Source of the DNA: a virus
Taxonomy: Duplodnaviria > Heunggongvirae > Uroviricota > Caudoviricetes
Length of the DNA: 38,209 nucleotides
Virus record (IMG/VR): IMGVR_UViG_2545824644_000015
Span: 1 to 38,209 of that record
Direction: 5' to 3' (one strand)
The notes under the pieces were generated by a model. It searched no databases, was not told the origin of the DNA, and saw only the letters and a program-made list of their open reading frames with translations. A program made the translations under genes and the position numbers. This document shows positions 2,568 through 10,008 of the stretch, piece after piece (within the stretch, counting starts at the first letter, position 1; each line of letters begins with the position of its first letter).

Positions 2568-5108
2568 CTAAATTATCTGCGTCACTGACAATGCTTTCTT
2601 TAACACCACTCCTCCGCTCGTTGTTGCTCCCTTTGAGTACTCAAAGGAGATATTGGCTGAAATGCCAAGATTCTCATCAGGACAATACCACCAAATTCCA
2701 ATAGGGAGCACAGATGCCTTGTCATAACTGACAGTGCGATCATACGACGACTGGTACCCATTGAAGTCATACCATTTAAACCCAGTAATTGCGTTGCCAG
2801 CAATCATGCAATCAGTGCTCATAACTACACCAAACGCATTCTTAATATTAGATGCAACTAATATGGCACTCATTGCGATATTCCTAAAGCTACATGACGT
2901 CACAGAGTATCCATTTGTATTTGCGTTTATAACTCCTATTTCTCCAAGGAAAGTCGTTGTCCTTATAGATCCATTAAAAAAAGATGTTGATTTTGTCCCT
3001 CTAAGACACACTCCCACATCAGACTCAAACGCGCTATCAGATATATCGATATACGTTGAACTTGCTGATGGATTATTCTTATAAAAGCTAACTCCGTAAT
3101 TTAGATTATTGAAATTACAACTATTAACCCTTACAGATGATACTCTTGCATCATATAAATAAAGGCCTGCCGTCATCCCTTCAAGGTGTGTGTCGTTTAA
3201 TGGAAACACTGCATTATCCCCAGCCTCGTTAGGATCATTCATTAATGTTTTAGGGTTTGTGAATTTATTTTTAATTATCGATGTAAACTCATCACAAAAA
3301 AAGTCATGTGATGCGCTATTAATTACCTTAAACCCTGAGAATCCGAATGGCTTCCCACCAGAGATTATTGCCAAACAAAATGCTTGCGCCCCACCGCGTA
3401 TTCTATATTGATTTGATTTTGATTCAAATTTAAAATTGCCTTGTAATGTTGAGTTGGTGATACAACTAAAAGAGTTACCTATGTATGATACGTTATTATT
3501 ATATGATGACGTTATGCTATAGCTGTTTACTTTATTTCCAGATATAAGAACATTATCACAAAAAAATTGAGCACATATCCCTGATTTTGATGTAACAACA
3601 TTATCAGACATTATGCTATGAATAACCATTGAGTGAAAAGTTATGCCCCAATGATCATGGCTATACGAAGTTGATATTAATGGATCGTTTATTATATTTC
3701 CAGTGCAGTTAACATAACAAACTTGCCTATATACTCCTATTGTTGAATCATTCAACCCAAGAGTTGAGCAAATGTTATCTTTAATAGAGCAAACAGAACT
3801 TGATGTGGCATAGCTAAACATAGCTTCTGGGATATTCCCTGTTAATCTATTCCTCTCGAATCTACCAGAATAACAATAATATCGCATCTCAACATGGACA
3901 TTATGGAAGTTACAACCAATCACTTCTGGCTCGATCTGAGACAAAAGCATGATTCTTCTTAGAGCATTGCTACTGCTTTTCATCGTCACACCATCTTTAA
4001 TTTTGAATGGCGTAAGGTTACCTGTTGGGAACCCAAATTTCGCAGTCCCAGCCACCTGATTTACCACCAGAGGTTGCGCCAAAATAGCCTTATTGGTAGT
4101 TGTATGACCTATAATTTTTGTTACCTGAATGAACTGAGATTGGTATCCATTCAAGTTACGTGTAAGTGCCAACCCATCTATGCTGTCAGCAGGTGTGGTG
4201 GATTTTTCCGCTTCATCAATACAGAACGGATATCCATTATCAATGACGACATATTGCCCTGTGCGATCTACACCATCGAGATATACCTCAGAGTGCCCTG
4301 CAGATGCAGGCTGAGAAAAAACTGTCATAGTTGGGAAGTCATATGGCTCAACCCTAAAATGATTACCCAATGTTATTGTGCCACGACCATATATACCTTT
4401 TGCCCCGGCTGGCGCTGTATAATCTGTTGTGGTGGTAAGGTCAGCTCCTGTAATGTTTACTTCTTCTCCGAAGTTAAACGCTGCCGTCAGTGCCTGCTCG
4501 GTTGTTACAAACCTATTGGTGTAGTTAAGGATATGGTTTAAATCATATCCGTTAAGATTCCCTACAGACTTCCAGTTTGAATCTGGTGAACTACCAGGAG
4601 GGACAGTTAATGGAACTGACAGATCACCAGTATAAATGTAATACCACCCAGTTGATGAATAGAATAGTGCCTGATATTTACTTGTTATCGTTGCACCAGA
4701 AGCAAAGGATACATTTTGCAGGCGTTTATAAACATTAAATCTAAAATTTTCATTAGCGTATAAAGAAAACTGATCTGGGTCGTACCCTAAAACATTCGGA
4801 AAATAGAACTGCTTCGCCCCATACGCATCGTACACAGCCATAGAATGGCCTTGCACAGTTACGAACTTGGCAATCTGTCCGTTATATACCGGGTAACCAG
4901 CAGCGTTAATGATGATTGGTTGAGAAACAGGAACGTGAGAACCGTCTTCGTTCTCCACATAAACCTGAATCCGGTTTTCAGGATTTACAGGGTCAGTGTC
5001 AATTTTACCGATATAAATTTCGCCATTAGCTACGGCTTTAAAAGAACGAGCCATAGTGAAGAGTTGCGAAGGCATCGATACAATCACATTAGCTGTAATG
5101 TCTGTCAT
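2568..5108 (-). CDS. Tailspike protein (P22-type head-binding N-domain fused to divergent receptor-binding domain)
   Basis: 846 aa; N-terminal ~115 aa [45 protein letters not shown]... matches the conserved P22/Sf6/HK620 tailspike head-binding domain as remembered; rest is an AT-rich, Asn/Ser/Thr-rich beta-helix-like domain. Confidence 0.9.
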
Positions 5109-5164
5109 TTAATTTGCTCCAGATACAAGGAATCGCCGCAGCGGGGCTACGGTGAATTTTGGGC

Positions 5165-5190
5165 ATAAAAAACCCAGCCGAAGCTGGGTC
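5165..5190 (-). terminator. Rho-independent terminator upstream of tailspike gene
   Basis: Plus strand aaaaaacccagccgaagctggg; on minus strand GC stem cccagc/gctggg followed by U-run. Confidence 0.6.
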
Positions 5191-5354
5191 GTTGCGTTGG
5201 TTATCTGTCAGTAGTTATGTACTGGCTGAAGGATTTGTACAAAAAAATCACCTGACGGTGGGTTAATTTTTGCATTTACCTGGGCCATATTGACTACTTA
5301 TAAAATGAGATCAATATTTAATCGCCCAATAACGGGTGTATGTTGAGGTATATC

Positions 5355-5534
5355 ATGGCGAAAAAACCAGGTGAAAACACAGGAAAAAACGGCGGAATAT
5401 ACCAAGAAGTTGGCCCACGCGGCGGTAAGAAAGACAATTTTGCCACCGTCAAGGACAACGAAAGGCTTCCACCAACAACAAAGCCAGGTCATGGCTGGGT
5501 ATTAGATAAGCGAACTCCAGACAGCAAAAAGTAA
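5355..5534 (+). CDS. Small conserved protein of unknown function (tentatively YjzC-like)
   Basis: 59 aa MAKKPGENTGKNGGIYQEVGPRGGKK...; RBS gagg 7 nt before ATG; own terminator immediately downstream. Family assignment from memory only. Confidence 0.55.
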   Translation: MAKKPGENTGKNGGIYQEVGPRGGKKDNFATVKDNERLPPTTKPGHGWVLDKRTPDSKK

Positions 5535-5540
5535 TAATCA

Positions 5541-5563
5541 AGCCGGGTCACTCCGGCTTTTTG
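5541..5563 (+). terminator. Rho-independent terminator
   Basis: agccgg-gtcact-ccggct hairpin followed by ttttt. Confidence 0.65.
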
Positions 5564-5913
5564 ATATGTCGCTCGCAGAACTCAACAAGCCTGCTCATTA
5601 AGTAGCAGTAAGTCTCGTTGGCTCTTCCTGGTTCAACATCAACACCGACCCTTGAGCAGATATCGAATGCCATGTGAGCGCACTCATGGGCAATAGTAGA
5701 TAGTTTGCCATTGAACACGCCTATCACATGCAAAACACCATTCTCGCTGCTCATTGTATGAGACGCTCCGTTGGCATCCGAGTCCTGCACGTCCACACCA
5801 AGTTTTTGATGCAGGCGTTGCCATTCTGGAAAGTCTCTACAAAACACAATTGTACCGCTCTCAAAGAGCGGAACGAGCATCTTTGGTACGTTTCCAATGT
5901 TAACTTTTTTCAT
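5548..5913 (-). CDS. Hypothetical protein with HExxH motif (possible small zinc metallopeptidase, ImmA/IrrE-like)
   Basis: ORF with internal start MKKVNIG (AGGA 4 nt upstream); contains HECAH with downstream Glu residues; no other recognisable domain. Confidence 0.4.
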   Translation of the reverse strand: MKKVNIGNVPKMLVPLFESGTIVFCRDFPEWQRLHQKLGVDVQDSDANGASHTMSSENGVLHVIGVFNGKLSTIAHECAHMAFDICSRVGVDVEPGRANETYCYLMSRLVEFCERHIKKPE

Positions 5914-5947
5914 GGTATCCTGCGCAAAACTAAGGAGGTTGGTGTGA
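5913..5947. repeat. 35-bp exact repeat copy 1 (tggtatcctgcgcaaaactaaggaggttggtgtga) carrying SD plus GTG start
   Basis: Identical to 7678..7712; contains aaggagg SD and GTG start of the downstream plus-strand gene; reverse strand supplies AGGA RBS and abuts start codon of the minus-strand HExxH gene. Confidence 0.9.
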
Positions 5948-6333
5948 AGCAATTTCTTGCTGCTATGTTCTTATTCATATCTTTTGGGGCTACAGCAGAG
6001 TGCTGGGTCGTTGGAGATATGCGCGGAATAAGCTATTCAGAACGAAATAATTTCCATCCGGAAGAAGATGGTTTTAGTGGAACATTCATCATTAAGACAA
6101 GCGGTGAAGATGCCAGCATCACATATTCTGGGACAGATGCGGGCGGCATGGCTTACAAAGCATTGTCTAAAAACTCCATCATAGGAATCGGCGCGAATGG
6201 CGAAACTCAACGCGTTATCGACTCATGGGTAATACATCCTACTGGAACAGTTTTAATGTCAAAAACCATTTCCGGTTATGGAAATATGGATTCAACCAAA
6301 GCTTTTGTTGGAAAAGTAAAAAGAAAATGTTAA
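5944..6333 (+). CDS. Secreted/periplasmic hypothetical protein (signal peptide)
   Basis: GTG start 7 nt after aaggagg; N-terminus VKQFLAAMFLFISFGATA-ECW has n/h/c signal-peptide architecture; Cys near both termini of the mature protein. Confidence 0.6.
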   Translation: MKQFLAAMFLFISFGATAECWVVGDMRGISYSERNNFHPEEDGFSGTFIIKTSGEDASITYSGTDAGGMAYKALSKNSIIGIGANGETQRVIDSWVIHPTGTVLMSKTISGYGNMDSTKAFVGKVKRKC

Positions 6334-6354
6334 TGATAGGATTATGGCCCTACA

Positions 6355-6540
6355 TCAACAGGTTACGCGCCCCTGAGTAATTCTATTGCGGATTTGCTTC
6401 TTACGGTGGTTTAGGCTGGAGAGCTTGTCTTCTGCTTCTGATATTTGCGCATCCAGATCTTTAAGTTCAAGCTCTGAAAGTCGCTGGTCAAGCAGGGTTT
6501 GGTTTAACTCAATGTTGTTCAGACGTTCTTCTATGGTCAT
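6355..6540 (-). CDS. Small coiled-coil hypothetical protein
   Basis: 61 aa; strong RBS taaggag 6 nt before ATG; heptad-like Leu/Glu-rich sequence. Confidence 0.45.
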   Translation of the reverse strand: MTIEERLNNIELNQTLLDQRLSELELKDLDAQISEAEDKLSSLNHRKKQIRNRITQGRVTC

Positions 6541-6552
6541 GATTACTCCTTA

Positions 6553-6580
6553 TAAAAAACCCACCTGAAGGTGGGTTTTA
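6553..6580. terminator. Bidirectional rho-independent terminator
   Basis: aaaaaa-cccacc-tgaa-ggtggg-tttt; A-run and T-run flank a perfect 6-bp GC stem so it can terminate either strand. Confidence 0.75.
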
Positions 6581-6583
6581 TAA

Positions 6584-7552
6584 TTAGATTTCTGGTTTCA
6601 TTCTTCCGAAAACCTTTTCTATTCCTTTTTCGTATTCTTCTCTTGTCTCACTCATCGCTGCGACACCAAGAAGCTTACCGATATGCTGACGCAAAGCCTT
6701 GACACCAATTTCAGAAAGGAACAGATGCAACTTATCAGATTGTTTTCCGTTCTCGTCTCGGCTGGCTCGAATCTGTTCAAGGATTTTACCTTTACTCTTT
6801 GCTAGCGGGGTGTATATCTGCATGTTGGTTAGCTGCCCAAAACGAATAGGTCGTCCTTTCTCTGGCCTATTCAGGCCGTACAGTCGATACCACTCCTCGT
6901 ATAGCTCATCTGGAAATTCCTTTTCATATTGACGAGCCTCTTCACGAACAAACGCTTTGAACTCGTCAATGACAGCCTGAACTTCTGGACGATAACCAGC
7001 AAGCGCATACGCAACCCCCTTAATTCCCGCCTTAGCGGAGGCATTAATAAGTCTCTGTGCTGCGGCGGCTGCCTTTAACCGTGATTGTGGTAGATCGTCA
7101 TTATCTTTGGCTTCTATTAGTGCCCTACCAATATCAACAATTGCTGTAATGTCATAACCTAACGCTTGATGAACGGTTTTAGACTTCGAAGTAAGTTGAA
7201 ATTTATAGGGATTTTCCATTTTTCGCTGCAATTCTAGATCTCGGTATTTGCTCATATACTGAGCGCCAAGCAGTTGATCTAAATCCCTGGCATGTTCACC
7301 AATCCCTAGCAACTGAGATAATCCAGTTTTCGTAACAACGACAGTTTTCGACTCGTCATCCAGTACATAACATTCAGCATCAATGCCAAAATCATCTAAA
7401 AAGTTACCACGATGAGTTGCCCTGAGAATCTTACTTTTCCATCTTGCAGCAGCTGCTTTCTTTGCTATTTCAGAACGCTGCTCTTTAGTCAGCGACTTTG
7501 CGCGAGCGATCCCGCCCTTAGCTTTCCCTTCGCCACTTTTCTTTTCAGTCAT
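6584..7552 (-). CDS. Hypothetical protein, P63C-domain-like with basic N-terminal region
   Basis: N-terminus MTEKKSGEGKAKGGIARAKSLTKEQRSEIAKKAAAARW resembles the conserved N-terminal motif of phage P63C-domain proteins (from memory); start placed at Met22 so the operator-like repeats lie upstream. Confidence 0.5.
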   Translation of the reverse strand: MTEKKSGEGKAKGGIARAKSLTKEQRSEIAKKAAAARWKSKILRATHRGNFLDDFGIDAECYVLDDESKTVVVTKTGLSQLLGIGEHARDLDQLLGAQYMSKYRDLELQRKMENPYKFQLTSKSKTVHQALGYDITAIVDIGRALIEAKDNDDLPQSRLKAAAAAQRLINASAKAGIKGVAYALAGYRPEVQAVIDEFKAFVREEARQYEKEFPDELYEEWYRLYGLNRPEKGRPIRFGQLTNMQIYTPLAKSKGKILEQIRASRDENGKQSDKLHLFLSEIGVKALRQHIGKLLGVAAMSETREEYEKGIEKVFGRMKPEI

Positions 7553-7553
7553 A

Positions 7554-7643
7554 ATGCAAGCACCTTTGTTGTGATGTATGCTTGCATTATATGCACTGTA
7601 CACACATACAAGCAAGCATAAAACAAAAACAAAATGCTTGCAT
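7554..7643. promoter_or_regulatory. Cluster of four 10-bp operator-like repeats (ATGCTTGCAT and inverse) in divergent intergenic region
   Basis: ATGCTTGCATTA at 7578 and 7634 (identical 12-mers); inverted near-copies ATGCAAGCAC at 7554 and AAGCAAGCAT at 7610. Confidence 0.5.
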
Positions 7644-7677
7644 TACAACCGCGCTACTCCAACTACACATTATCATC

Positions 7678-7712
7678 TGGTATCCTGCGCAAAACTAAGG
7701 AGGTTGGTGTGA
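7678..7712. repeat. 35-bp exact repeat copy 2 carrying SD plus GTG start
   Basis: Identical to 5913..5947. Confidence 0.9.
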
Positions 7713-8158
7713 GTGAAAAATTATCAGTTGAGATTTACAGGGATGCCAAAAAATTGATTAAAAAGGCATTGCTGATTTCCCTATCTTTGTTAGCCATTGC
7801 CATTGTTTATTTTGTGGCAGACAAAATCTATACAGAACAAAAAAATAGCAAAAAAAGCGCTGAACTGATTATGCGAGCCGAAAATGCTGTCAAGGGTAAA
7901 TCACCCATGGTATTCAACAGAACATTCCTTGGCGAAAGCTCCTCTATTTCTGTTTGGTTTATTAATGATTCAGATGGGCATATTCTTGTAGAAAAAAACG
8001 GTGAAAAATCATTGTTTTCATCAAGAGAATCCGTATACGGTGGCATCAATGCATACCATCAAGCCGGAAAGGCATGTGAAACCCTGTCTTTTTCTATGAC
8101 TTCAGGTTTTGTGATATCTGTTTCTTGCGATTTTGATGATTATTACACTAAAAAATAG
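7709..8158 (+). CDS. Membrane-anchored hypothetical protein (candidate superinfection-exclusion/moron product)
   Basis: GTG start after aaggagg inside the repeat; basic N-terminus followed by hydrophobic segment LLISLSLLAIAIVYFV; occupies the sieA/immI position of P22-like phages. Confidence 0.5.
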   Translation: MSEKLSVEIYRDAKKLIKKALLISLSLLAIAIVYFVADKIYTEQKNSKKSAELIMRAENAVKGKSPMVFNRTFLGESSSISVWFINDSDGHILVEKNGEKSLFSSRESVYGGINAYHQAGKACETLSFSMTSGFVISVSCDFDDYYTKK

Positions 8159-8175
8159 CCATCCATGGCATTTAG

Positions 8176-10008
8176 TCACTGCTGTGTTGCCTCAGTAGCA
8201 AACAGCGGTCTGATGGCATTCGCAGCATTATTTAGCGCTCTTTCATAGGCTGGCGTTCCTGCTTTGGTGTTTGCCAGACGTAAGAGCGCATTCCTGGCCA
8301 TAGGGCTTTCATAAACCCTCGACATAAGGCCAATCCCTGTTTCCCCAGCCAATAGCGCGCCTCCGGTTTTTAGGTTACCAATAACCCTTACCAAAGGCGC
8401 GAGTGTCATGCCAGTCTTCGTCACAACATTAGCCTCAGATGCTCTTTTGGTAGCATCGAGAATAGATAACATCCCCTCTATCTCTTTTCCGTTCTTCCCA
8501 CCAAATACAGTTTTAAACACCTGACCATTTGCTTGTTTTTGCAGTTTGCCAAGCTCGCTCATCATTTTCTGAGGGCTGTCACCTACCTTGTCAGCTATTT
8601 TGCTGATATATGCCGCCCTTAGCATGTCTTTACCTTTTTGATCGAGTTTCCCGTACAATCGAGCTATATCTGACCCATATTGTCCATACACAATGGTATT
8701 TACAGCCTCGGGAGTTAAATCTCCTTTGTTTAGAACGTTTTTAAGGCGCGTTTGAGTTGCATGTGTTGCCATTTTTGCATAATCAGCTTTTCCCGCTCTC
8801 CATGCTGAAGCATCTTTTGGGCTAAGTCCTTTCGCTATAGATTTACTAAGGCTATTGGTTAGCGAGTTATAGACCCTGTCGACCATTGTTTGCGACATTG
8901 ATGGCAGAACTGTACGATCGCCTTTTACGTCAATGCGGAACTGAGTTCTCAGCTTATCAAGTAACTCAAAGGCATCATCTCCATTTGTTATCTCCTGAAT
9001 GGCATTCTTATAATCATTAAGCGCAGAAATGGTCTGGGTGTCAGAAACACCTTTAAGTTTCCCAAGTTCGTTTACTGCTCCGTCGATAGCTCTTATGGCG
9101 CCACTTGTATCAACTGGCTTTCCAACCATTCTTCCTGACAGGCTGTTTAGTTTTGACTTGGCTAACGATTTTTCCCTTGCAACGCCTGACTTTAGACTAT
9201 CAACGACTACAGATGGATCGTAGTCGCCGTATTTTTCGGTGAAGCGATTAACAAGCTTGGTTCTGGCATCCTGCTGTGCGGATCTCATTGGTCCAGTACC
9301 AGCTATGACTCCTTCTGAGTAACCCTGCAGTTGATTGCCAAGTTTTGTTTTTGGAGGAACTACATCCGATGTCATAACTGGTACATCTGCCGCAGCGGCA
9401 CGCTTGAGCAATTGCTGATCTGCTGGTGATATTTCGCCACGAACAGCAGTAATTCCACGCCCTATTCCCTTTGCTGCTGCGGAAAGAACCCCCTGAGCGG
9501 CAAGGTTAACTCCGGCATTTTTAGCTGCATTTTGTGCGAAATCGCCTTTCTGATTTGCGGCCTCTGCCAGTGAGCCAATAGCCATGCTTCCTGCCGTTCC
9601 AACTCCTGGAACTAAATACCCACCAATTGTTTCACCGGCTTGCGCGTAGGGGTCTGTCGGTCGATCGACAGGGCGATAAACATCATCCAAAACCTTGGGG
9701 CCACCAAGCCCTTGGCTGATTGCATTAATCAGACTTGCGCCACCCTGCAATACGTCAAATGGTATGTTTACCAGACCGCGACCAGCCTGCTCTGCAATTT
9801 GCCCTGCACTTTGACCACCTGTGAGCCAATCGCCAGCTTGTTGCATCAATGATAGTTCTTCACGTGCTGGTTCATTATTGGCCTGATTAACTGTTTGTTG
9901 CTGAACAGCCTGACCAGCAAAATACTCATCAATGGCGGTGCCAATATCTTCCGTGCTCGTACCATCAGGGAAGGTAAATGTCTTACCGTTTGCAGTTACT
10001 TTCATCAT
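8176..10008 (-). CDS. Ejection (DNA transfer) protein, P22 gp16-like
   Basis: 610 aa, Gly/Ala-rich; position and size match P22 gp16; N-terminus [22 protein letters not shown]. Confidence 0.8.

Follow-up and report, generated by a model that had tools for sequence, protein, structure and literature searches.

What does the island between the tailspike gene and gene 16 of a P22-like prophage consist of, and do its genes work together? The island considered here occupies positions 5109-8175 of the IMG/VR virus record IMGVR_UViG_2545824644_000015, a stretch of 38,209 nucleotides called the window below. It holds six small genes. A first-pass annotation made from the sequence took them for a candidate undescribed superinfection-exclusion or anti-phage defence cassette. 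The reading reached here, to which we give a probability of roughly 60%, is that the island is a composite of independently exchangeable modules in a recombination hot spot within the late operon, with two of its proteins as likely exclusion factors.

The whole stretch is a CUS-3/HK620-like E. coli prophage, and the island fills precisely the gap between the tailspike gene (2568-5108, - strand) and the gene for the ejection protein gp16 (8176-10008, - strand). Judged by its sequence, it is the "ant moron" (immI/sieA region) of such a prophage; the earlier identification as the sieA/immI slot of P22-like phages is borne out by these flanks and by identity to P22 and HK620. The region as such has been described before. 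The name "ant moron" for the region between gene 16 and gene 9 was given by Villafane et al. in 2008 (PMC2629481), who counted ten moron types among sixteen genomes and judged the region to be in rapid flux.

One system or exchangeable modules

The six genes of the island are the following.

5355-5534 (open from 5340), + strand: orf59a homologue; 59 amino acids (aa), small, basic and Gly/Pro-rich
5548-5913, - strand: hkcC homologue; 121 aa, HExxH at 76-80, N99-E100
5944-6333, + strand: Hex-family protein; 129 aa, GTG start, signal peptide with predicted cleavage after A-T-A; first sieA-slot cassette
6355-6540, - strand: coiled-coil protein; 61 aa, basic C-terminus, AAGGAG 7 nucleotides (nt) ahead of the ATG
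6584-7552, - strand: P63C-domain protein; 322 aa, PF10546 at residues 199-286
7709-8158, + strand: bitopic membrane protein; 149 aa, GTG start; second sieA-slot cassette

Adjacent, compact, separated by terminators and placed in a slot known for an exclusion gene, the six genes might be taken for one integrated, undescribed defence or exclusion system with cooperating parts. Comparison of the slot across P22-like prophages, which the first-pass annotation had proposed as a check, revealed free assortment of modules instead. Across 80-odd related loci the six genes occur in almost every sub-combination, each of them is also found apart from the others and next to unrelated genes, and the full set is present at no locus; because of this, the island is not one system. 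When the six proteins were counted by tblastn in 53 loci, 14 presence patterns emerged, none complete, with orf59a and hkcC alone in 17 loci, P63C alone in 9, and hkcC with the 61-aa gene in 4. Upstream module, slot family and downstream gp16 allele likewise assort freely when tabulated across loci. The exact arrangement of the island is absent from 50,697 phage records, from 5,426 complete E. coli genomes and from 66 viral contigs that bear the leader sequence described below. Among the complete genomes, that of ET479 is alone in spanning 80% or more of the island, with the order permuted. A search of the island proteins against PADLOC-DB 2.0 (E <= 0.1) returned no meaningful match, the sole hit being that of the coiled coil of the 61-aa protein to JetC (0.01). 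A single cooperating system is thus extremely improbable.

The joints between the modules can be seen at the sieA leader, which is present twice in the window. The features of the slot are these.

5913-5947, + strand: sieA leader copy 1, with Shine-Dalgarno sequence and GTG; left mosaic joint of the sieA slot
7678-7712, + strand: sieA leader copy 2, without the PsieA -35/-10 region
5883-5913, + strand: PsieA homologue; matches the annotated P22 promoter and overlaps the 5' end of hkcC
8159-8169, + strand: right-boundary motif CCATCCATGGC, directly 3' of the slot-gene stop codon

The two leader copies were reported by a repeat finder as a perfect 35-nt direct repeat, TGGTATCCTGCGCAAAACTAAGGAGGTTGGTGTGA, 1765 bp apart. 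Each holds a strong Shine-Dalgarno sequence and the GTG that starts one of the two exported proteins of the + strand. Homology to P22 stops precisely at this GTG, which is the sieA start. Positions 5834-5946 differ by 1 nt from the region upstream of P22 sieA, and in P22 85 bp of upstream sequence together with sieA are enough for exclusion (Leavitt et al. 2024, PMC10883804).

A 29-nt core of the leader occurs in 66 IMG/VR contigs, in a single copy in each, and among the 5,426 complete E. coli genomes 124 have the leader; neither of two scans of GTDB species-representative genomes gave a match. Translation from the GTG in the 66 contigs yields at least 12 unrelated protein families, including the HkcB type (HK620), the Hex type, SieA, a 116-aa polytopic protein, and 62-aa and 149-aa proteins. 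A hydropathy scan places a hydrophobic segment at the N-terminus of 11 of 12 slot families. Alignments show near-perfect conservation as far as the GTG and none beyond. Upstream of the leader stands one of two alternative modules, either hkcC with PsieA or the P63C gene with its intergenic region. On the other side, a CCATCC[A/G/T]TGG-like motif follows right after the stop codon in at least 7 unrelated slot families, and the end of gene 16 comes next. The motif, with or without a further C (CCATCC[A/G/T]TGG(C)), stands at the equivalent position in the related loci L009, L011, L015, L016, L019, L022, L033, L054 and L064, among others. The motif may mark a joint of recombination, act as an RNA element, or simply reflect ancestry.

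Since unrelated families start at the same GTG, homology ends there and the right-end motif recurs, the sieA position is an exchange slot for small envelope proteins. Because the leader is present twice, the window stacks two slot cassettes, the Hex-family gene behind the PsieA region and the 149-aa gene next to gene 16. Between them lie the 61-aa gene, a terminator, the P63C gene and the intergenic region. Cassettes would be swapped by homologous recombination at the leader and at the gene 16 end. A literature search found no paper that describes the leader and the families behind it, and this cassette logic, with its duplication here, is modestly new. Known P22-like phages carry sieA itself in 22 of 66 cases (PMC10883804).

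Direct repeats of 35 bp predict loss of the 1765 bp between them, and the expected product exists in nature. The locus L016 reads orf59a-hkcC-leader-149aa-gene16, which is the window minus the 1765-bp unit between the leader copies. Other partial arrangements were found by segment mapping: P63C-intergenic-leader-149aa in L078, leader-Hex-61aa in L058, and 61aa-terminator-P63C-intergenic-leader in L012 and L067. In ET479 (L005, NZ_CP100950), positions 3000-6600 read P63C-leader-Hex-61aa-orf59a-hkcC-leader, and an HNH endonuclease gene lies by the tailspike. This permuted order is consistent with recombination between leader copies.

The GTG appears to be the true start of both + strand exported proteins, given the conserved Shine-Dalgarno sequence and the mosaic joint. 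Mechanical open reading frames (ORFs) at 5728-6333 and 7634-8158, as well as database annotations (611R6 URC09199, cluster P0002), begin at upstream ATGs. These longer frames run through the leader and so acquire a common peptide, GILRKTKEVGV. The six small ORFs are otherwise present as first described, with three starts refined.

The PsieA-homologous promoter falls within the first hkcC codons on the opposite strand, and the leader repeat begins at the last base of the hkcC start codon. With this overlap, transcription of the slot gene and of hkcC must collide head-on.

A strong link was also seen between slot family and the type of the gp16 C-terminus (L008-L073). HkcB is paired with ...SLSGMAQE in all contigs that have an intact cassette, SieA with ...NEATRQ and the 116-aa family with ...QKEAQ; the 149-aa family is found with two gp16 C-terminal types. 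The link may be no more than physical, or the slot family may be matched in function to the ejection protein. Functional coupling was not adopted as an explanation, since the two are physically adjacent.

Another possibility is that the loss of immI left the island as decaying debris with no function today. Remnants of the ant and mnt terminators are present, and the P63C genes of two related loci (ET479 and Emek) are frameshifted. Against this, all six ORFs of the island are intact, and the same proteins recur with identical sequence in hundreds of assemblies. Relatives with as little as 26-43% identity retain the catalytic and cysteine motifs. The ratio of non-synonymous to synonymous variation against diverged copies (pN/pS) is 0-0.5 where computable. 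Together with the homologues that each protein has elsewhere, these ratios indicate that all six are real genes under purifying selection, and the debris explanation is highly improbable.

Two proteins behind the leader

If the island is a set of modules, the idea of exclusion has to be asked of each module separately. As a six-gene system, or as a defence system recognised by PADLOC, the cassette first proposed finds no support. For the two slot genes exclusion is a reasonable reading, because both encode exported or membrane proteins behind the sieA leader, and one of them has the PsieA region and is a Hex homologue.

That one is the 129-aa protein. It had been noted as a signal-peptide protein; a signal peptide is predicted here too, and the protein can now be placed in the Hex family. 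Against PHROGs it matches phrog_2651 with an expect value (E) of 3.2e-60, and Hex of phage 434 falls in the same family (E 1.4e-58). Identity to 434 Hex is 27% over the full length (BLASTP 4e-12; tblastn 2e-5 to 6e-4), and identity to Emek orf129 is 99%. All Hex-family members compared begin with a signal-peptide-like segment. Three residues are invariant: C20 and W21, a Cys-Trp pair at the predicted mature N-terminus, and C129, at the C-terminus. The exact Hex-like protein was found in 1,281 blocks of an assembly collection. In all ten of the ten places shown, its gene adjoins gene 16, and the genes upstream there are P63C, ClpP, PIN-domain and SocA/Panacea genes. In the window it has the PsieA region yet is displaced from gene 16.

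Hex was named for the "heterologous exclusion" of P22 by an imm434 lysogen (PMC3564112). The same study reports that deletion of hex raises spontaneous induction in a recA-dependent manner, and that a Hex fragment blocks the cleavage of 434 and P22 repressors in vitro. One could accordingly suppose that the Hex-like protein is cytoplasmic and shields the prophage repressor from RecA-stimulated autocleavage. The family features argue against this, as every member has the signal-like segment followed by the invariant Cys-Trp and the C-terminal Cys. The published stable fragment, "sHex", starts at Glu43 of the 158-aa ORF (L074 1429-1905), which is the first residue after the predicted signal peptide, MIRIAALLSILLTTSANS. 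In the window, moreover, the gene stands in the sieA slot, apart from the repressor gene. A cytoplasmic role is, on balance, improbable.

Because sHex begins at the predicted mature N-terminus and the Cys pair is invariant, Hex is likely periplasmic, and these sequence features suggest that 434 Hex is a secreted protein. This is flagged as a correction to the literature: phage 434 Hex looks secreted. A periplasmic Hex sits uneasily with the reported RecA-related mechanism. The chances are about even that the Hex-like protein acts, by analogy with SieA and Hex, at the inner membrane or in the periplasm against DNA delivery by incoming P22-like phages.

The second slot protein, of 149 aa, had been described as membrane-anchored, and a single transmembrane (TM) segment is indeed predicted. 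The predicted topology is a short cytoplasmic N-terminus, one TM segment (about 20-37) and a periplasmic all-beta domain with two invariant cysteines. The protein falls in 4 clusters among 5.8e9 proteins and has 15 representatives among 1.84e9. No match was found in PHROGs, Pfam, PADLOC or the phage database, and the protein is a near-ORFan from a small uncharacterised family. Members of the family (26-98% identity) keep a cytoplasmic YxDxK motif, one TM segment, W83, D87, G120, C123 and C140. An AlphaFold2 model (predicted local distance difference test, pLDDT, 88.7) has a helix at 2-60 and an eight-stranded beta domain. A structure search with it gave no significant neighbour in PDB (best E 0.11) and one unnamed viral match in BFVD.

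The exact 149-aa protein is present in 114 blocks, and its gene adjoins gene 16 in every place shown. The gene upstream is hkcC, P63C, an Mnt-like gene or a cI-like HTH_3/Peptidase_S24 gene; in other prophages the cI-like or Mnt-like repressor gene immediately precedes the 149-aa gene on the same strand. A promoter scan and manual reading of 7600-7677 revealed no convincing sigma-70 -35/-10 pair for the 149-aa gene. By the same analogy as for the Hex-like protein, the 149-aa protein may also act at the inner membrane or in the periplasm against DNA delivery by incoming P22-like phages, which we hold somewhat short of an even chance.

The orientation of the genes can be explained along the same lines. 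The alternation noted at first is real (+ - + - - + in order along the island), and its interpretation as a series of independent defence units is not supported. It is better explained, by analogy with P22, as a + strand expressed from the prophage set against a - strand that belongs to the late operon. In P22, the strand of mnt, orf59a and sieA is the one expressed from the prophage, and late transcription has to cross the moron before it arrives at gene 9 (PMC2629481). The + strand genes of the island (orf59a, the Hex-like gene and the 149-aa gene) would likewise be expressed from the prophage, and the - strand genes (P63C, 61-aa and hkcC) would be carried on the late transcript. Both slot proteins would lie in the periplasm or inner membrane and, like SieA and 434 Hex, disturb DNA delivery by superinfecting P22-like phages. 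The two possibly differ in specificity, in which case stacking them would broaden exclusion.

The main rival for the slot proteins gives them another envelope function. They could be lysogenic-conversion factors that serve in immunity to bacteriocins or type VI effectors, in stress protection, or in modulation of the host surface. The slot does host many unrelated small envelope proteins, some of its region's occupants look unlike exclusion genes (at least one E. coli prophage has an annotated Rap1a/Tai-family immunity protein there), and exclusion by either protein of the window is argued by analogy. On the other hand, P22-type phages are excluded both by SieA, the one slot occupant tested, and by the one Hex-family protein tested (PMC10883804, PMC3564112), and the slot genes adjoin the ejection-protein genes that SieA targets. 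This rival is unlikely.

Several of these points weigh against reading the island as modules with two exclusion factors, namely the argument by analogy and the occupants of a different kind, and there are others. The sole biochemical study of Hex gives it a cytoplasmic role, in which RecA-stimulated repressor cleavage is blocked, and this is a misfit for a secreted protein. The 129-aa protein shares just 27% identity with 434 Hex. Structure searches with the model of the 149-aa protein gave no informative neighbour. The PsieA hexamers are missing from the leader copy ahead of its gene and no good promoter was seen there, so expression of the gene is assumed and uncertain. Finally, HkcC has no significant match in Pfam, PDB or Foldseek searches.

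The reading of exchangeable modules can be carried one step further. The sieA slot could be a dedicated cassette-exchange site where a dozen or more unrelated envelope proteins each inhibit the gp7/gp16/gp20 ejection apparatus, with the 149-aa protein as a new exclusion family and with Hex acting in the periplasm and not on RecA. Taken together this is doubtful. If it were true, the window would show a leader duplication that lets a prophage stack two exclusion specificities. If other slot occupants also exclude, the locus would be a panel of natural, unrelated inhibitors of the ejection channel, the Hex-like and 149-aa proteins included.

Other genes, signals and neighbours

The left third of the island, 5140-5946, has 98.6% identity to P22 and 96.6% to HK620 (megablast against phage genomes). 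In the P22 equivalent, orf59a and the annotated PsieA promoter are accompanied by the start of sieA and by an ORF that has no annotation and is identical to hkcC of HK620. For the equivalent in HK620 the annotation lists HkcD (orf59a), hkcC, a bidirectional terminator and, as "remnants", the terminators of ant and mnt.

No trace of mnt, arc, ant or sieA was found in the island by BLASTP against P22 proteins, Pfam or Rfam, in agreement with the first impression that none of the six proteins resembles Mnt, Arc, Ant or SieA, which BLASTP and PHROGs confirm. The island proteins contain no Arc or antirepressor Pfam domains. An Rfam scan did not find sar RNA in the island and returned only sub-threshold, hairpin-type matches. 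The mnt-arc-ant genes have been lost, and what is left of them, as in HK620, is terminator remnants only.

For four of the six genes there are entries in well-known phages already: orf59a, hkcC, the 434 Hex homologue, and the P63C protein, which is identical to that of a published phage. Against NCBIfam, none of the six proteins had a meaningful match. P22 genes of unknown function, as listed in 2008, include hkcC and 59a (PMC2629481).

The orf59a-like protein has 98% identity to P22 orf59a and matches phrog_3202 (E 1.3e-31), with a pN/pS of 0-0.3. It had been called a YjzC-like protein with its own terminator. A hairpin is present at 5540-5559; the match to YjzC (PF14168) covers 47 of 55 model positions at E 0.0017 and, with 19.1 bits, stays below the Pfam cut-off of 25.

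HkcC is the protein first singled out for its HExxH motif. It is 100% identical to HkcC of HK620, and its identity to the copies in P22 and HK620 is 99-100%; P22 BK000583 contains this ORF without annotation. Searches found 32 clusters, and HExxH (H76-E77-C-A-H80) and N99-E100-T101 are invariant in 20 homologues, down to 43% identity, which upholds the motif. E100 lies 20 residues past H80. An ungapped 47-aa alignment with thermolysin places H76/E77/H80/N99-E100 on H142/E143/H146/N165-E166, with an E of only 0.1-0.7. The assignment of zinc ligands in thermolysin is established for family M4.

The AlphaFold2 model of HkcC (pLDDT 89) is alpha/beta, with a beta-sheet, a backing helix, the HExxH helix and a "glutamate" helix. 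Of the structure-based searches proposed at first, Foldseek was run with the HkcC and 149-aa models and gave no significant named match; the top hit for HkcC was SPRTN, a SprT-type protease, at a probability of 0.63. Lenient Pfam scans gave a marginal SprT-like match only, and the alignment profile of HkcC found nothing useful in PDB. HkcC is a putative minimal gluzincin outside any curated family, and probably a small thermolysin-type zinc peptidase made late in infection. A second correction to the literature is flagged here: P22 itself putatively encodes an unannotated, conserved mini-protease with the thermolysin motif. Pid, the dgo-operon instigator, was considered as the identity of this unannotated ORF opposite sieA and was rejected, as pid lies between orf25 and orf80 (PMC3573128).

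The 61-aa protein is a coiled-coil protein, as first described. It matches phrog_7586 (E 6e-42), is 93% identical to Emek orf61, has a pN/pS of 0.13-0.27 and is seen in many prophages. The XhlA haemolysin label that NCBI gives to a relative is unsupported, with a match to PF10779 at E 0.14 and 12.8 bits where 34.7 are needed, and no TM segment.

The P63C-like protein passes the Pfam threshold for PF10546 (52.5 bits, gathering cut-off 26.1), matches phrog_2384 (E 2e-104) and has an invariant basic N-terminal motif, GKAKGGxARA...T.EQR. It is 100% identical to the hypothetical protein URC09200 of phage vB_EcoP-611R6. Diverged copies of the gene show 14 synonymous differences and 0 non-synonymous ones. 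Neither sequence comparison nor an alignment profile search found a PDB relative, and a full-text literature search for "P63C" found no paper on the phage domain.

Terminator-like sites number 10 in the island, compared with 4.1 +/- 2.1 in shuffles. Three rho-independent terminators had been proposed; folding supports at least four (hairpin with U-run). The signals are listed below.

5165-5190 (hairpin 5171-5190), - strand: rho-independent terminator; U6, -15.3 kcal/mol, z-score (z) -3.5; remnant of the P22 ant terminator, tANT of HK620, where the counterpart is annotated "associated with remnant of P22 ant gene"
5239-5263 (hairpin 5248-5261), - strand: weaker terminator-like hairpin; -9.3 kcal/mol, z -2.7; remnant of the deleted mnt, tMNT of HK620; repeat family D1
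5290-5318, + strand: promoter-like site 5' of orf59a; TTGACT-17-AATATT, a match to the consensus at 9/12 positions only
5540-5559, no strand assigned: hairpin common to the convergent orf59a and hkcC; "tORF59A" of HK620, annotated there as bidirectional, with a clear U-run on the + strand only
6553-6582, no strand assigned: bidirectional terminator between the P63C stop and the 61-aa start; inverted repeat I9, -16.6 kcal/mol with U6 (-) and -15.3 (+)
7552-7645, no strand assigned: divergent intergenic region; four ATGCTTGCAT-type half-sites as two inverted-repeat pairs; inverted repeat I1

In the whole window there are five matches of the ATGCTTGCAT type, and four of them fall in 7552-7645. 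The - strand of this region can fold into a 14-bp hairpin (-19.9 kcal/mol, z -3.9) that takes in the start codon of P63C and has the Shine-Dalgarno sequence as part of its loop. The region is nearly invariant in 12 contigs, where it stands ahead of different slot genes. It might serve as an array of operators, or else control translation.

Ant morons of other prophages carry further cargo. PIN-domain genes with a 239-aa partner and SocA/Panacea-domain pairs were seen in L077, L079, L083, L084, L086-L088 and L006. A ClpP-like protease and a cI-like HTH_3/Peptidase_S24 repressor, the latter directly upstream of the 149-aa gene, were found in the same ant morons. The ant moron is a general depot for toxin-antitoxin-like and regulatory cargo.

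Across the window the gene order is integrase (1-1158), acyltransferase (1331-2494, - strand), tailspike, island and virion genes. The flanks of the island are as follows.

2568-5108, - strand: tailspike; 846 aa, with the P22 head-binding domain (Head_binding, E 1.8e-63)
8176-10008, - strand: gp16-type ejection protein; 610 aa, its stop borders the island

The gene at 1331-2494, between integrase and tailspike, encodes an acyltransferase-type membrane protein, probably an O-antigen acetylase, and its G+C content is only 29-31%. The receptor-binding part of the tailspike is likewise poor in G+C (30-38%). The low values in both suggest that they were gained jointly, as one serotype module.

Comparison with known systems

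Thermolysin-type gluzincins (M4) have in common with HkcC the HExxH motif and an Asn-Glu 20 residues past the second His. The order of the fold (beta-sheet, active-site helix, "glutamate helix") is also that of the predicted HkcC structure. HkcC is merely 121 aa long, and it lacks the Ser-Asp part of the thermolysin NExxSD motif.

T4 Sp, P1 Sim, lactococcal Sie2009 and TP-J34 Ltp are small envelope exclusion proteins of phages or prophages in which a single N-terminal anchor or signal precedes an extracytoplasmic domain, and they would block DNA entry. They are likened to the slot proteins by general description only.

Hex of 434 and gp38 of Sf6 (PHROG 2651) share with the 129-aa protein the signal peptide, the Cys-Trp at the mature end and the C-terminal Cys, and hex of 434 is in a prophage-expressed position, as the 129-aa gene would be. 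Their location differs. The 434 and Sf6 genes follow cI within the PRM operon of the immunity region, whereas the 129-aa gene is in the sieA slot of the late region, behind the PsieA region.

SieA of P22 (Leavitt et al. 2024, PMC10883804) has the same GTG and leader as both slot genes and is an envelope protein too. Its gene adjoins gene 16, as does the 149-aa gene. SieA is a polytopic inner-membrane protein with four hydrophobic segments in the hydropathy scan, whereas the 149-aa protein has one and the 129-aa protein one, which is signal-like. BLASTP finds no similarity of either slot protein to SieA types A-C, and P22 SieA matches phrog_7745 (9e-109), which the window proteins do not.

As a whole, the island represents no new kind of biology and refines a known hyper-variable moron region. 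Besides the slot logic, what is modestly new is the uncharacterised 149-aa occupant, the thermolysin-type site in HkcC and the likely secretion of Hex. The position between gene 16 and gene 9 is that of the ant morons of P22, HK620, CUS-3 and epsilon34. The orf59a and hkcC genes (98-100% identity) are shared with P22 and HK620, the PsieA region and the sieA leader are those of known ant morons too, the terminator remnants are the same as in HK620, and rapid flux is a common property as well. The island differs from the ant morons of known phages in having no mnt, arc, ant, sar or sieA, and, where those have one leader and one slot cassette, it has two of each.

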